From the UHGV virus genome UHGV-0097019: DNA of 11,714 nucleotides, one strand, 5' to 3'. The notes under the pieces are model-generated. The model was not told the origin of the DNA and searched no databases. It was given only the letters and a program-made list of their open reading frames with translations. Positions 2,883-7,353 of this stretch are shown in pieces. Each line of letters begins with the position of its first letter. The stretch's first letter is position 1. Position numbers and translations under genes: made by a program. This DNA is from a virus.

Positions 2883-4703
2883 TTATGCCTGAGTACGCAG
2901 CGCTTCAAGGCGGCGCAGGTCGAAGTCGTTCAGTTCGTCGGTGTAGTCAGCAGTGATTGGCGCTGGCCATTCACCTGTGTCGAATCCGGTTGCGATATTG
3001 CGCATCGCTTTGCGGTACTCGAGCATACCCAGCTCCAGTAGTTCAGCGGATGCCTCGATGATGGCGATCCAGTGGTAGTTCTCGTCTTTGTTGACGAAAA
3101 TCCAGAAGAACTGATCCAGCGCTGCGGTTTCGCAGTACATAGCCGCGCTCAGGTGATAATCACGTTCAATAATTTCCCGGTGTAGCCTGGCGCGCAGGCT
3201 TTCCTGCTTAACATTCCACATGCTGATGGTTTTCAGGTCAGCACCGATACGCACGCCGTCTAGGTCGATCTCAAGGTCAGGGCGCACACGAACTTCCAGT
3301 CCCGTCTCCTCGTCAAAGCCAAAGTAGCTCACCTCAACGGCGCGGCTCGGGTGGGTTAGCAGCATGCCTGCGGTCGGGTGCGAGAGCAGTGCTGACTGAA
3401 TTGCCTGCGCGGTGGCAAGTTGCTGGTGGGTAACCAGCACTTTCCCTTCCGGGTTGTTGCGCCACGCATCGAGCAGCTCGTCGGCGAACACTGCATCTGG
3501 TTTGACTGCCTTCACGGCCTGAATCAGATCGGCCTTCGTGCCAGAGACTTTCAGCGGTTGCAGCTTCTGAGCTTCCTGCGCGACCAGGTCAGGATTGATA
3601 ATCGCAAGTTGTTCGAGTAGTGCGTCGCGGCTGCCGCTGGTTTTAATCTGCGCTGGCAGGGTGGCGTTGTACTCTTTGATGCACGCCTTCATTGCTGTTG
3701 CTGTCTTCTTCTGATCTGCATCGATACGTTGGAATTCAGCTGGCAGCGCCATATAGTTCTGCGCCGTTTCATCCAGGCTAGCGCCCAGCGGCACCAGCGC
3801 TGGCAGGGTGGCGTTGTATTCATCCAGCAAAGCTTTGATATCGTCTGCGCTCAGTTGCGCTGGCAGGCTGGCGTTGTACTCATCAATAAACGCGCGGATC
3901 GTTGCCGTGGTGGTAAATGCACCTTCCGGAATTACGGGTTCAACGCTAAATTCTTCATCGAGCTGTTCTGGCTGCAACGCCAGCGCATGTACCAGGTTTC
4001 CCATGTCCAGCACTGAGGAGCGCTCTTTGACGATGGTTTTCTCAACGTGGCGCGCATTGAAGTACATCAGCGAAACGCGCGCATCTTTTACCTGGGTGGA
4101 ACTGATGCCGTTGGCAGCGTGGTAAACCTCGTTCGGCAGACCTTCATAGCGCCCAGGCTCGAAGTAATCGGGGTAAAAAACAGCTTGTTCGTCAGATTGC
4201 GCCTCTGGCTCGACGTGTGCCAAAACTGGTTCAGTCTGGTTTACAGAATCGCTATTTTGAGCGACAGATTCCGTATTTTGGTTTACATCGGCCTGCTGGC
4301 CGGGATGTGACTCTTCACCAGTTTCCAGACTGCTTTCGCCTGACTGCATTTCATTACCAACATTTTTTTCATCACTGACAGTTTCTTGAACCTGCACATT
4401 GCTGGTGGTTTCCGTAGCCTGTTTCGTGCCATGAGTTGCTGAGTTCTGCAGTAAAGCCGTAACATCGAATATTCCGTTGCCGACATTTTTAACCAGTTCT
4501 TGTTCGGCTTTATGTGGTTGTGCTGTCGCTTCCTCTGCGCGGCGGCGTGCTTCTTCTTCACGTACGCGTTGCAGGTTCTCTTCGTGAGTGCAGAAGGGTT
4601 TGCGTGGAGACTCCTTACTTTCAGGTTGGGGAATTTCCTGTGTTGCGGGCTCAGCTTCATGCAATGGCAATAACTCAACAGCAGCATTAAACGCAGCAGT
4701 CAT
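2883..4703 (-). CDS. recE: RecE-like exonuclease VIII (PD-(D/E)XK nuclease) with acidic/Q-rich N-terminal region and internal repeats
   Basis: 606-aa ORF. C-terminal half contains ...ETGLEVRVRPDLEIDLDGVRIGADLKT..., consistent with a PD-(D/E)XK motif, and an upstream YHAANGISSTQVK segment. Gene order with the recT-like gene matches Rac-type recET. N-terminal ~170 aa is low-complexity (E/Q/S/T-rich). Confidence 0.6.
   Translation of the reverse strand: MTAAFNAAVELLPLHEAEPATQEIPQPESKESPRKPFCTHEENLQRVREEEARRRAEEATAQPHKAEQELVKNVGNGIFDVTALLQNSATHGTKQATETTSNVQVQETVSDEKNVGNEMQSGESSLETGEESHPGQQADVNQNTESVAQNSDSVNQTEPVLAHVEPEAQSDEQAVFYPDYFEPGRYEGLPNEVYHAANGISSTQVKDARVSLMYFNARHVEKTIVKERSSVLDMGNLVHALALQPEQLDEEFSVEPVIPEGAFTTTATIRAFIDEYNASLPAQLSADDIKALLDEYNATLPALVPLGASLDETAQNYMALPAEFQRIDADQKKTATAMKACIKEYNATLPAQIKTSGSRDALLEQLAIINPDLVAQEAQKLQPLKVSGTKADLIQAVKAVKPDAVFADELLDAWRNNPEGKVLVTHQQLATAQAIQSALLSHPTAGMLLTHPSRAVEVSYFGFDEETGLEVRVRPDLEIDLDGVRIGADLKTISMWNVKQESLRARLHREIIERDYHLSAAMYCETAALDQFFWIFVNKDENYHWIAIIEASAELLELGMLEYRKAMRNIATGFDTGEWPAPITADYTDELNDFDLRRLEALRTQA
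3651..3882. repeat. Three near-identical 24-bp intragenic direct repeats (CGCTGGCAGG[G/C]TGGCGTTGTA[C/T]TC at 3651, 3799, 3859), each encoding EYNA(S/T)LPA in the RecE-like protein
   Basis: Seen directly. Reverse complement GAGTACAACGCCACCCTGCCAGCG translates to EYNATLPA. Protein context: IDEYNASLPAQ, LDEYNATLPAL, IKEYNATLPAQ. Confidence 0.8.
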
Positions 4704-4888
4704 GGTCCGGTTACTGTCTGTGTACCGTAGTGCTGATGAACCATGATGTTCTCCACTATTGCTGAGTGAACTTCGCTGGTGGTGCCGTGACGCTGATCTT
4801 CACAGTTGAGCGTTTTAACTCTGCAATTCACCACCGCGAAGCTCACTTCTGTGTTTGCCCTTGTCGCCAGGCTGGCGGAACGTTTCAA
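4700..4888 (-). CDS. Small upstream ORF translationally coupled to recE (62 aa from TTG, or only the last 14 codons from ATG 4742-4744)
   Basis: The stop codon overlaps the recE ATG (ATGA at 4700-4703). recE itself lacks a Shine-Dalgarno, whereas ATG 4744 has GGAG 6 nt upstream. The 62-aa version needs a TTG start; no recognisable family. Confidence 0.25.
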   Translation of the reverse strand: MKRSASLATRANTEVSFAVVNCRVKTLNCEDQRHGTTSEVHSAIVENIMVHQHYGTQTVTGP

Positions 4889-4996
4889 ACCTACTGCGCG
4901 TTAATATCACCACCTCATTCCGGTTTTCGTATGCCCCGGACGGCTACTTCGTGGGCTCCATGCCTGGGTGGTTCGTGGTGCGTCTTGGTGAGTTAG

Positions 4997-5025
4997 ATTA
5001 AATCACTGGTTTATATATATGTCAA
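4997..5025 (-). promoter_or_regulatory. pL-like early-left promoter: -35 TTGACA (5025..5020), 17-bp spacer, -10 TTTAAT (5002..4997) with upstream TG (extended -10)
   Basis: Consensus -35 read on the minus strand. Located just past the terminator of the repressor operon and directed into the recE/recT operon. Overlapped by a repressor-operator-like repeat. Confidence 0.4.
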
Positions 5026-5061
5026 CTTAAGGTTAGTGTTAATTGTAAATCTGAGGTTTAT
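4999..5061. promoter_or_regulatory. Candidate left operators: two copies of a 16-bp motif (TAAATCACTGGTTTAT at 4999-5014; TAAATCTGAGGTTTAT at 5046-5061), 47 bp apart
   Basis: The same motif recurs twice at 47-bp spacing in the repressor-cro intergenic region (6474-6489, 6521-6536). ATTGTAAATCTGAGGTTTAT (5042-5061) and ATTGTAAATATTTGGTTTAT (6470-6489) share 17 of 20 positions. Confidence 0.45.
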
Positions 5062-5099
5062 GTGGCTGGGTTTTGTGACACGTCTGCAGAATCGCAGGC

Positions 5100-5127
5100 A
5101 AAAAAAATCCCGACGCGTGGTCGGGAT
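5100..5127 (-). terminator. Rho-independent terminator ending the repressor operon
   Basis: On the minus strand the RNA reads AUCCCGAC-CACGC-GUCGGGAU followed by seven U (8-bp stem, 5-nt loop), about 70 nt after the stop of the 5200-5721 gene. Confidence 0.75.
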
Positions 5128-5199
5128 GAGAAGGTTCGGGGAAGGCGACAGAGTTAGTAGCTGAGAGCCTTATAACTCAGGCGTATTGACCAAATCTGA

Positions 5200-5721
5200 C
5201 TAAAAGAAGTGCATAAAAGCTTTGTACAGCCCTGTACCAATGGCGATAATCGCAGGGACACCTAAGAGAATCGCCAATTTAGCATCAGAGATTTTCTTGT
5301 CCACTGTGTCTGATGAGGGCTTTTTGTCTACAGACTCTTTGATACTAGACAGCCTCTCCAAAACTACAGCCATATTTTTGTCCAGTGAATTCACTGTCGT
5401 ATCAACTTTTGAAACTGTGTTTTTTATCTCGGCAACATCTTTCTTGATGTGGGCAACTTCAACCTCAAGAATAGCCAATCTCTTTTCCATGTCGTCACCT
5501 CCATCTTCAGTTGACGTATGAATGATTTCAGTATCATCCATAGCAACTGATGTGACAATCCGTTTTTGTTTATCCGAAGCGGCAAAACTACAAGCACCCA
5601 TAAGGAAGGTTGCTTGGCTCGAAGCTACTGATGAAAACTCTAAGCCTACTGTAGCTCCGCTATGGTCTGAATATGCAATCAATAACTTCCCTTCACCAAG
5701 AGATGATTGAGCCGCATCCAT
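5200..5721 (-). CDS. Uncharacterised tail-anchored membrane protein: N-terminal globular region, acidic linker, coiled-coil, C-terminal transmembrane helix
   Basis: 173 aa from ATG 5719-5721 (the track starts at the adjacent TTG). Coiled-coil-like segment MEKRLAILEVEVAHIKKDVAEIKNTVSKVDTTVNSLDKNMAVVLERLSSIKESV. C-terminal hydrophobic stretch LAILLGVPAIIAIGTGLYKAFMHFF. AT-rich codon usage distinct from flanking phage genes. Second gene of the repressor operon. Confidence 0.65.
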   Translation of the reverse strand: MDAAQSSLGEGKLLIAYSDHSGATVGLEFSSVASSQATFLMGACSFAASDKQKRIVTSVAMDDTEIIHTSTEDGGDDMEKRLAILEVEVAHIKKDVAEIKNTVSKVDTTVNSLDKNMAVVLERLSSIKESVDKKPSSDTVDKKISDAKLAILLGVPAIIAIGTGLYKAFMHFF

Positions 5722-5727
5722 CAATTA

Positions 5728-6009
5728 TTATTCCTCAAACATACTTTTTAAGGATTGATAAAAATCATAAGCCTTTTGTTTGCTTAAAGTCACAGACACA
5801 ACTTTGGTTCGCTGCATGCCCTTGACGACTATATCCGCATTATCCGTACCGATGATCGGGCTGCTATTCAGGAACACAAAATTGTAAACTTCGTAACCGG
5901 CATTTTGTGTGCCGATTGTTACGACACCGTCAGCATTGGTCTCGATGAAATTTTTCGCTTCGATTACATCATTAAGATGCATAAGTTCGACGGTTGTTTC
6001 TTTAGACAC
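5728..6009 (-). CDS. Uncharacterised small soluble protein (93 aa), first gene downstream of the repressor
   Basis: GTG start at 6007-6009 with GGAGG Shine-Dalgarno 5 nt upstream. Ends with a double stop (TAA TAA) 6 nt before the next gene's ATG. AT-rich. No family recognised. Confidence 0.65.
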   Translation of the reverse strand: MSKETTVELMHLNDVIEAKNFIETNADGVVTIGTQNAGYEVYNFVFLNSSPIIGTDNADIVVKGMQRTKVVSVTLSKQKAYDFYQSLKSMFEE

Positions 6010-6073
6010 CGAATCCTCCAGAAGATATTAAATCTTGAAATATTTTTATTACATGGAATTAGATACTACTGGT

Positions 6074-6463
6074 TTAGGTTTGCTCACCTTGCGATCGAAT
6101 CCGACCCTTCATGTACTTCTCGTACAGCTCATCTAACTCTTTCAGGCGAAGCGCAAAAATGCGGAGCATGTTCTGCTGCTCTTCTTCCGGTAACTGGCGG
6201 TAGAGCTCGAGCAAACGCTGTTCGTCCGGTTTGAGACCGTCTTTCTCCCCAACGTCTTCACCGAGTAGCCAGGCGACAGAAATACCAACAGCGTCGGCTA
6301 TGGCCAGTGCCGATTTCTTACTAATCACGCCTTTTTTGAACCAGCCGTTTACGGCCTGAGGGGTGACTCCAGCTATTCTTGCCATGTCTGCTTTGGTAAC
6401 GCCGCGATCAGTGATCTCAGTAAGGCGCTCCACCAGAACGAGGTTGGGTTCTTCTTTTCTCAT
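6074..6463 (-). CDS. Prophage repressor, XRE-type HTH, DicA/RacR-like
   Basis: 130 aa from ATG 6461-6463. N-terminal HTH (VTKADMARIAGVTPQAVNGWFKKGVISKKSALAIADAVGISVAWL). C-terminal LKPDEQRLLELYRQLPEEEQQNMLRIFALRL resembles the DicA tail (LSPKELELLELFNALPESEQ, from memory). No LexA-type S24 peptidase motif. The 219-aa ORF in the track is an upstream extension across the divergent promoter region and is rejected. Confidence 0.8.
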   Translation of the reverse strand: MRKEEPNLVLVERLTEITDRGVTKADMARIAGVTPQAVNGWFKKGVISKKSALAIADAVGISVAWLLGEDVGEKDGLKPDEQRLLELYRQLPEEEQQNMLRIFALRLKELDELYEKYMKGRIRSQGEQT

Positions 6464-6469
6464 ATGGTC

Positions 6470-6536
6470 ATTGTAAATATTTGGTTTATGCACGCAATAA
6501 ATCCAAAGTTTGCATGAAGTATAAATCTGTGGTTTA
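6470..6536. promoter_or_regulatory. Divergent immunity control region: PRM-like promoter for the repressor (-35 TTGCGT 6497..6492, 16-bp spacer, -10 TACAAT 6475..6470, minus strand) plus operator-like repeats (6474-6489, 6521-6536, and an inverted partner at about 6497-6507)
   Basis: The -10 ends about 6 nt before the repressor ATG and no Shine-Dalgarno is present, implying a leaderless transcript as for lambda cI from PRM. Repeat motif shared with the pL region. The rightward promoter for the cro-like gene is not cleanly resolved (candidate TTGCAT 6510-6515). Confidence 0.4.
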
Positions 6537-6565
6537 CTTCTGCTATCAATAAGCAGGAGAAGCAC

Positions 6566-6784
6566 ATGTCCGCACTCGATAAAGCAATTAAAGCCGCTGG
6601 CTCTGCCAGAAAGCTCAGCATCGCGCTTGGTGTGACGAGTATGTCTGTAAGTCATTGGAAGAATCGTGACCAAGGGATCGTCCCGCCAAGCTATATCTTC
6701 CCGATTTTCAAAATGACAGGCGTAACCCCCCACGAGCTGCGCCCTGATCTCTATCCAAATCCCACTGACGGATTACCAAAGTAG
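6566..6784 (+). CDS. ydaS: Cro-like HTH protein, YdaS family
   Basis: 72 aa, AGGAG Shine-Dalgarno. Divergent from the repressor. LSIALGVTSMSVSHWKNRDQGIVPPSYIFPIFKMTGVTPHELRPDLY parallels E. coli YdaS (LLGVSPPSVNQW...ELRPDI, recalled from memory). Confidence 0.75.
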   Translation: MSALDKAIKAAGSARKLSIALGVTSMSVSHWKNRDQGIVPPSYIFPIFKMTGVTPHELRPDLYPNPTDGLPK

Positions 6785-6795
6785 GAGCACTGACA

Positions 6796-7353
6796 ATGCA
6801 AACACTTTCTTTTCAACAGAATAACAGAGCGCCATCAGAGCACCTGAAATTCCAGTATCAACACAGTGAGGCTGAAGGCCAGCCGGTCGATCACCGGGCT
6901 ATCTGTTCTGCCGTCCGCGCCTGGGCGGCGGCAGAGGGCCGCGTGGCGGTCGCTCTGGCGATTAAAGAGGCTGCCGAACAGGCCGAGCTTGACAGCATTG
7001 ACATGACCGGCAGCGCCGATGTGTGGAACGTGAAGCTGTTTCGCTGGCTGGACAACCACGAGAAATCACCGGCCTACCGGGCGAACGTCGAGCAGCTGGC
7101 GCCGGTAATAATTTCGGTTCTGCCGCTGGCGTACCGGGATCGCGTGATTAAGCACGACTGCTTTGCGGTTCGTGTCGCCAGGTCGGTGAAAGAAGACGCT
7201 GAGGCGATACAGGCTGTCGTCCTCAAAGCCCCCAGACACGAACGGATGAAGGAAATCAGCGAGAGCATCGTAGCCAAGCTCTACCTGGACGGACCTGATT
7301 CTGTGGCGCCCATTATGGCGATGGTTACAACGATGCTGGGTGGTGCGCTATGA
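6796..7353 (+). CDS. YdaT-like / CII-like regulatory protein
   Basis: 185 aa, AGGAG Shine-Dalgarno 9 nt upstream, 11 nt after the ydaS-like stop. Assignment rests mainly on synteny (racR-ydaS-ydaT arrangement) plus loose similarity; not verified. Confidence 0.5.
   Translation: MQTLSFQQNNRAPSEHLKFQYQHSEAEGQPVDHRAICSAVRAWAAAEGRVAVALAIKEAAEQAELDSIDMTGSADVWNVKLFRWLDNHEKSPAYRANVEQLAPVIISVLPLAYRDRVIKHDCFAVRVARSVKEDAEAIQAVVLKAPRHERMKEISESIVAKLYLDGPDSVAPIMAMVTTMLGGAL

Follow-up and report, generated by a model that had tools for sequence, protein, structure and literature searches.

The PaaR2/YdaS/YdaT system of prophage CP-933P in Escherichia coli O157:H7 is the closest experimentally studied immunity switch with the gene order described here, and footprints, a leaderless repressor, triplets of sites in OR and OL, and bistability have all been reported for it (PMC8630535). 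In the Gifsy prophages, repressors similar in size to the one treated here are not cleaved and are instead inactivated by small LexA-controlled antirepressors (Lemire et al., PMC3121763), and DicA is likewise relieved by an antirepressor (PMC10448788). We compared with these systems the immunity region of UHGV virus genome UHGV-0097019, analyzed as one stretch of 11,714 bp (here called the window). The DNA belongs to an E. coli prophage that is inserted beside kch, and its exact immunity region is present in 13 of 5,426 complete E. coli genomes. A 16-bp motif recurs at both ends of this region, and its copies are very probably the left and right operators (oL and oR) of a lambda-type immunity switch that serves a short repressor and its Cro-like partner. 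An earlier note on this DNA had already proposed oL/oR operators, and both the position and the covariation of the sites support that proposal, which nevertheless missed the three-part structure of the operators and the presence of one site over the putative cro promoter. We found no published description of the TAAAT-N4-GGTTTAY operator specificity in the literature searched, and it therefore appears to be a new specificity within a known kind of switch. The operator set is well supported by comparative evidence and functionally ordinary, and it leaves the understanding of lambdoid switches unchanged.

Compared with lambda, for which we relied on established knowledge and the summary in PMC8630535, the locus shares several features. 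Repressor and cro genes that point away from each other flank a gap of roughly 100 bp, and this gap holds three pseudo-palindromic sites, each about 17 bp long, set in steps of 23 to 24 bp with the outer sites 47 to 48 bp apart. A second triple site lies at the putative leftward promoter (pL), at a distance of 1.5 kb; the O1 sites fall on the putative lytic promoters and O3 on that of the repressor, and the repressor mRNA is apparently leaderless. It differs from lambda in that the operator sequence is unrelated, the middle sites are far weaker than the outer ones, and the repressor is a protein of 129 amino acids (aa) that lacks a LexA-type cleavage domain and has another helical C-terminal domain. 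The likeness to CP-933P comprises a short repressor, cargo genes, and pL on one side with a YdaS-type Cro and a YdaT-type cII on the other, an intergenic region of similar length (97 bp in CP-933P versus 102 bp here), OR/OL triplets, a repressor that is leaderless there and predicted to be so here, and -10 elements (putative here) made of operator half-sites. The components themselves differ: the YdaS proteins are 27% identical, PaaR2 matches our repressor at 19% identity over 81 aa in the C-terminal part only (pairwise E-value, 5e-4), and the CP-933P repeats, TTTAGT-N4-ACTAAA/GTTTAGTAA, have a half-site polarity opposite to that found here (PMC8630535). Gifsy-1 and Gifsy-3 resemble the present prophage in carrying short noncleavable helix-turn-helix (HTH) repressors, GfoR and GfhR, in a recE/recT-type lambdoid setting, and differ from it in the antirepressor module, which here lies outside the window. 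The recE/recT and ydaS/ydaT genes are laid out in Rac as they are here, but the operators of RacR are (T/A)TAGGC-N3-GCCTA(T/A) (PMC9638921), and the dicA-dicC intergenic region of Qin differs as well, having TTGTTAGTTATGACTAACAA-type repeats (TTGTTAG..CTAACAA).

Operator-like sites and putative promoters

The strict pattern TAAATNNNNGGTTTAY (TAAAT-N4-GGTTTAY), searched on both strands of the window, has four exact matches, all on the plus strand, whereas none of 200 dinucleotide-preserving shuffles contained any match; the repeated 16-bp motif described in the earlier note is real and nonrandom. A position weight matrix (PWM) built from 39 distinct sites of related loci and used to score 23,392 positions in the window placed the same four sites at the top (23 to 25 bits). 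Together with two weaker middle sites, they are as follows.

4999-5014, plus strand: O_L1, strong candidate operator site, TAAATCACTGGTTTAT; exact match, PWM score 24.0
5022-5036, plus strand: O_L2, weak middle site, TCAACTTAAGGTTAG; PWM rank 27 of 23,392, 23 bp from O_L1
5046-5061, plus strand: O_L3, strong candidate operator site, TAAATCTGAGGTTTAT; exact match, also recovered by the PWM
6474-6489, plus strand: O_R3, strong candidate operator site, TAAATATTTGGTTTAT; overlaps the -10 element and spacer of the putative repressor promoter (pRM)
6498-6513, orientation ambiguous: O_R2, degenerate middle site, TAAATCCAAAGTTTGC; 2 mismatches
6522-6537, plus strand: O_R1, strong candidate operator site, TAAATCTGTGGTTTAC; ends in C, overlaps the -10 element of the putative rightward promoter (pR)

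The sites take the form of a 15- to 17-bp pseudo-palindrome, (R)TAAAT-N4-GGTTTA(Y), whose half-sites TAAA and TTTA are separated by one helical turn, a geometry that suits a dimeric HTH protein. The copy previously placed at 6521-6536 does exist, but its true coordinates are 6522-6537 and its last base is C; the claim of an identical 47-bp spacing at both ends does not hold, since the left pair is 47 bp apart and the right pair 48 bp. A search for the strict motif across approximately 498 kb of sequence from related loci found no copy outside operator positions, and the sole extra match was an unpaired O_L1. The shorter core GGTTTAC occurs within recE and is uninformative, as the earlier note had cautioned, but its copies lie at 4238-4244, 4280-4286, and (on the minus strand) 4122-4128 rather than at 4239 and 4270; none of these recE copies scores as an operator with the PWM. 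The top operator-like score outside the operators belongs to a sequence within the repressor gene (6337-6355, CGTAAACGGCTGGTTCAAA, 8.1 bits), which is probably a chance occurrence.

O_R2 stands 24 bp from either outer right site and is the fifth-best location in the window, scoring 11.3 bits on the minus strand and 8.8 bits on the plus strand; its orientation is ambiguous because the operators are pseudo-palindromic. It abuts the -35 element of pRM and overlaps that of pR, is kept in loci of the same immunity class as the window (class A, defined below), and is nearer the consensus in phage PHB10 (TAAAGTTATGGTTTG). An inverted copy had been reported at about 6497-6507; a further site is indeed present there, but as this degenerate middle site of ambiguous orientation at 6498-6513. 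O_L2 overlaps the -35 element of pL, with which it shares TCAA, and its counterpart in one related locus (L002) has only 2 mismatches, while other classes retain class-specific bases at this place. Given the middle sites at 6498 and 5022, both operators therefore appear tripartite with lambda-like spacing, oR starting at 6474, 6498, and 6522 and oL at 4999, 5022, and 5046, in steps of 23 to 24 bp and with strong outer and weak middle sites. The four strong sites share one reading direction, that of the plus strand; in the class designated B, however, reverse-complementing O_R1 gives exactly O_L1, and the same comparison is ambiguous for class A. We draw no inference from site orientation.

Promoter-like elements accompany the sites, and we tentatively assign three of them by reading the sequence.

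4997-5025, minus strand: putative pL; TTGACA (5025..5020), 17-bp spacer, TTTAAT (5002..4997)
6470-6497, minus strand: putative pRM; TTGCGT (6497..6492, weak), 16-bp spacer, TACAAT (6475..6470)
6510-6538, plus strand: putative pR; TTGCAT (6510-6515), 17-bp spacer, TTTACT (6533-6538), with TG before the -10

O_L1 occupies the spacer and part of the -10 element of the putative pL, whose elements TGTCAA and ATTAAR recur at fixed spacing in all immunity classes, and O_R1 covers the spacer and -10 element of the putative pR, at whose -35 position other classes carry a perfect TTGACA, again with a 17-bp spacer. In every class, the putative pL and pR each have a TTGACA-like -35 element at a constant 17 bp from a hexamer derived from an operator half-site. 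Conserved -35- and -10-like elements overlap operator sites, but the pL and pR -10 hexamers are noncanonical. The earlier placement of a left copy over a pL-like -10 and of a right copy over a PRM-like -10 agrees with these assignments, in which O_L1 overlaps the putative TTTAAT and O_R3 the putative TACAAT. In the putative pRM, 6 nucleotides (nt) separate the -10 element from the repressor ATG, and every class has a -10-like hexamer (TACAAT, TAGAAT, TACACT, or TATTCT) at exactly this distance of 6 nt from the start codon of the repressor gene. No Shine-Dalgarno sequence was found before the repressor ATG, and this, together with the closeness of the -10 element, predicts a leaderless repressor mRNA, as has been established by experiment for the analogous paaR2 (PMC8630535). 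A consensus promoter scan of the window missed pL, pR, and pRM, in the case of pL because its -10 element has T rather than A at position 2. We consequently base the promoter positions on reading the sequence and on its conservation.

Conservation and covariation of the sites across Enterobacterales

Related loci were taken from phages PHB10, SW-37, SEN34, and mEp237 and three Klebsiella phages, whose repressors are 62 to 97% identical to that of the window, and from a one-genome-per-species scan that contributed 43 further loci. We surveyed their architecture with the loose pattern TAAR-N7-YTTA in 45 Enterobacterales loci (423 kb). This pattern matched 201 times. Of these matches, 86 fell in the oR interval, at 5 to 70 bp from the start codon of the repressor gene, and another 66 belonged to oL pairs beyond the repressor operon. 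Two oR sites spaced 47 to 49 bp apart, at 11 to 19 and 58 to 66 bp from the repressor start codon, were present in 41 of the 45 loci, and an oL pair spaced 46 to 48 bp apart was present in 33, between 0.5 and 2.6 kb from oR. E. coli relatives that have the same repressor class and other cargo genes carry the same four sites at matching places, O_L1 included in class-A relatives. The arrangement is kept across repressors with identities of 52 to 100%, despite repeated exchange of the cargo genes that lie between the repressor gene and oL; the DNA between sites shows no conservation between oL and oR.

The operator sequence follows the recognition helix of the repressor, and the loci fall into the following classes.

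Recognition helix TPQAVNGWFKKG: operator TAAAT..GGTTTA (class A, the class of the window)
Recognition helix TPQSVNGWFKKG: operator TAAGY..RCTTA
Recognition helix S(S/A)QSVNNWFVRG: operator TAAAC..GTTTA
Recognition helix SKQAV(S/T)GWF(K/R)TG: operator TAAAY..GCTTTA

At least three of these are heteroimmune classes in which the operator tracks the recognition helices of both the repressor and Cro at oL as well as oR, and in the first three, oL and oR change together. Repressors of the TAAAT..GGTTTA and TAAGY..RCTTA classes are 86% identical, with a C-terminal domain that is nearly invariant among classes; the substitutions that set their HTH domains apart are V22M, A25S, A37S (which falls in the recognition helix), I55V, V59A, and A64P, and in their operators the fourth position of each half-site is A in the first class and G in the second. 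Judged from these alignments, A37S is the leading candidate for the change in specificity. Because so few HTH substitutions separate the two classes, the series could be a tractable natural specificity code. We offer tentatively the idea that the family forms a naturally occurring allelic series in which orthogonal sets of repressor, Cro, and operator share one scaffold, an idea that we hold to be possible but short of probable. Should a few residues suffice, the result would be a simple recognition code for engineering orthogonal switches, and an allelic series, if true, would explain how one GfoA-type antirepressor could induce heteroimmune prophages together. The comparison defines immunity specificity (operator sequence, layout, and probable promoters) for a prophage type that is widespread in Enterobacterales and offers several natural heteroimmune classes of operator and repressor on which HTH specificity could be tested.

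We infer that the repressor and the Cro-like protein bind these sites, possibly with cooperativity between sites and looping between operators. Repressor on O_L1 would block the leftward promoter, which serves the recE/recT operon, and repressor on O_R1 would block the rightward promoter, which serves the cro-like, cII-like, and replication genes. By analogy with known switches, the site beside the pRM -35 element could activate the repressor promoter, and O_R3, lying over the pRM -10 element, could shut it at high repressor concentration. The Cro-like YdaS protein would be expected to compete for the same sites.

Several observations count against this operator model. Both middle sites are weak, and O_L2, with a score of 1.1 bits, is the weakest part of the model. 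The -10 elements of pL (TTTAAT) and pR (TTTACT) are without the usual A at position 2, the promoter scan missed both, and neither the scan nor inspection separates alternative registers of these elements. The fourth class (TAAAY..GCTTTA) has no paired oL under the strict pattern. The covariation amounts to about four independent immunity classes, because many of the 45 loci are closely related, and the repressor and Cro covary jointly, so that sequence cannot assign a protein to a site.

This last point bears on the alternative that survives best, namely, that the main or sole reader of the sites is the Cro-like YdaS protein (or the cII-like YdaT) and that the 129-aa HTH protein acts elsewhere. 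The Cro-like HTH does covary with operator class as tightly as the repressor HTH. In every characterized switch with this gene layout, however, both proteins share their operators (lambda; CP-933P footprints, PMC8630535), and the sites over the repressor's own -10 element and beside its -35 element fit autoregulation. As for YdaT, the CP-933P protein recognizes an unrelated TTGATT-N6-AATCAA repeat (PMC9986795). We consider this alternative as a whole very unlikely.

Somewhat more improbable again is that the motif is the site of a host factor such as IHF (integration host factor), or a shared promoter architecture, with no phage-specific recognition. The sequence AATCAC-N4-TTA resembles the IHF consensus WATCAR-N4-TTR, O_L1 is one mismatch from the IHF core, and the half-sites also form parts of the putative -10 hexamers. 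However, no operator copy matches the IHF core WATCARNNNNTTR; at oL and oR alike, the sites follow the recognition helix of the repressor from class to class, which a host-factor site would not do; and O_L3, O_R3, and O_R2 lie away from the -10 elements of pL and pR. An IHF site was rejected on the lack of a WATCARNNNNTTR match and on the covariation. The idea that the oL-oR similarity is a functionless remnant of duplication or recombination, or chance, has the common flanks of the two strongest shared stretches in its favor (ATTGTAAAT....GGTTTATG at 5043 and 6470) but is scarcely credible, given that the shuffles produced no match, that the similarity is limited to the sites and does not extend to the DNA between them, and that the arrangement survives repressor divergence and repeated cargo replacement.

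The repressor and its likely route of induction

Under the preferred reading, in which the sites are operators of the short repressor, the family to which this protein belongs becomes relevant. The AlphaFold model (predicted local distance difference test [pLDDT], 85) has a five-helix domain (residues 8 to 66), a linker, and two C-terminal helices, and the N-terminal domain superposes on the DNA-binding domains of the P22 c2 and 434 repressors at approximately 2 Å. A Pfam search returned HTH_3 only, with no S24/LexA-type peptidase domain. The protein had previously been called DicA/RacR-like, of which the first half stands: DicA is a full-length homolog (E = 5e-12, 28% identity over 111 aa, residues 23 to 124, including a C-terminal LLEL..LPE.EQ motif), but the resemblance to RacR covers only 27 HTH residues and the RacR operators are unrelated, and membership in a RacR-like group was rejected on these grounds. 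Membership in a PaaR2-like group was rejected as well, on the low identity and different repeats noted above; that likeness is one of function and architecture only. By protein family, then, sequence comparison places the repressor in the DicA/Gifsy GfoR group and not with RacR or PaaR2. For GfoR, the N terminus given by primer le144 (KEKTHQIN) resembles that of one family member (L010, KNTHQSDN), a comparison of short peptides only. A PDB sequence search with the repressor returned spurious summed matches to polyubiquitin, which were rejected.

A search returned 945 homologs of the repressor, of which the best 120 are at least 85% identical; at that level of identity, the family is represented in Salmonella, Klebsiella, Enterobacter, Citrobacter, and E. 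coli. Many homologs are annotated as proteins of 137 to 139 aa that begin at an upstream in-frame GTG or TTG (6464-6493 in the window). Such a start would run through O_R3, and the ATG at 6463, which gives the shorter, leaderless form, is therefore likelier; this would correct what are likely start-codon misannotations across the repressor family. Several relatives have a second HTH gene directly downstream of the repressor gene (L001, 4561-4953; L005, 4891-5292; L006, 4877-5269), which encodes a repressor paralog with 47 to 55% identity and has no counterpart in the window.

Because the repressor has no self-cleavage domain, we would expect induction to proceed through a LexA-controlled antirepressor of the GfoA type. 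The Gifsy antirepressors are encoded beside a dinI homolog to the right of the replication genes (PMC3121763). Neither a LexA box nor dinI was found within the window. In the prophage of E. coli ES7 (L058), a LexA box, dinI, and an 82-aa gene lie approximately 450 to 1,080 bp past the point corresponding to the right end of the window (L058 14361-14998): a perfect LexA box, TACTGTATAAAAACACAGTA, stands 19 bp upstream of the dinI homolog, which is followed by the 82-aa open reading frame (ORF). The same module is present in a class-A prophage (L001, 8865-9500). The 82-aa protein has an N-terminal SDSALQ and a near-C-terminal VTQPSD that resemble MSNSALQ and VTPPSD of GfoA, whose termini we know only from the published cloning primers pp866 and pp867. 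Because this module lies just beyond the window in a nearly identical prophage, antirepressor-mediated induction of the prophage is likely, and we predict that prophages of this type are induced through a LexA-controlled antirepressor.

Gene map and leader RNA

ORFs and domain searches (Pfam, PHROG) gave the following map around the sites, in which the genes are arranged as in a Rac/Gifsy-type lambdoid immunity region.

5-1243: integrase gene
Left of the left sites, minus strand: genes for a DUF4060 protein, RecT, and a RecE-type nuclease
5107-5127, minus strand: intrinsic terminator of the repressor operon, with an 8-bp stem followed by a T run
About 5200-5724, minus strand: cargo gene for a protein of approximately 173 aa that combines a coiled coil with a membrane/hydrophobic segment at its C terminus (PHROG 12602)
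5728-6009, minus strand: cargo gene for a 93-aa protein (PHROG 12039)
6074-6463, minus strand: repressor gene (129 aa, Pfam HTH_3 only)
6566-6784, plus strand: cro-like gene of the YdaS family (72 aa; Pfam YdaS_toxin, E = 1.4e-13)
6796-7353, plus strand: cII-like gene of the YdaT family (Pfam YdaT_toxin; PHROG "CII-like transcriptional activator," E = 3e-40)
Right of the cII-like gene: replication O gene

The 102-bp intergenic gap separates the divergent repressor (6463..6074) and cro-like (6566..6784) genes. Both cargo genes lie downstream of the repressor gene and are cotranscribed with it, in the position of lambda rexAB; PADLOC (no convincing match), Pfam, and PHROGs gave no function for either. 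At the same position, relatives carry HicAB, DUF6932, or fumD. Across their shared sequence, the window and the prophage of E. coli ES7 are 99.97% identical, but the window carries a 1,559-bp deletion. The deletion junction falls at approximately 4708-4713 of the window, and the missing segment (L058 5349-6907) takes with it the 5' third of recE, the whole of ydaE, and most of a kil-like gene, leaving a 606-aa RecE ORF that begins at an internal ATG. This looks like the loss of a toxic kil function in a resident prophage.

Just downstream of the putative pL, the minus strand also encodes a structured RNA (4906-4975) that is common to all immunity classes. Its structure combines an outer helix (CCACC/GGUGG) with two hairpins, one of them GGC/GCC and the other an inner one whose loop, GGCAUACGAA, is conserved, and an extra small hairpin follows at 4865-4877 on the same strand. 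In the alignment, a standard base pair is present in 96% of cells, versus 23 to 42% when partners are slid by 1 to 3 columns; 9 of the 17 pairs show compensatory changes, and the covariation score was reached by none of 500 shuffles. A covariance model detected a single copy in each of 46 loci, invariably in the pL leader position. It detected no copy on the downstream side of pR, nor any in CP-933P, Rac, Qin, HK022, or HK639, and no Rfam family matched the element. The position is that of putL in HK022 and HK639, but identity with a put RNA was rejected, there being no significant covariance-model match in either phage, including to the annotated putL-like RNA of HK639. By blastn, the core of the leader RNA is present, unannotated, in phages SfV, SfII, ST64B, phiNP, and SPN3UB, and the element may be a new cis-acting RNA that acts in antitermination or as a Rho/NusG target.

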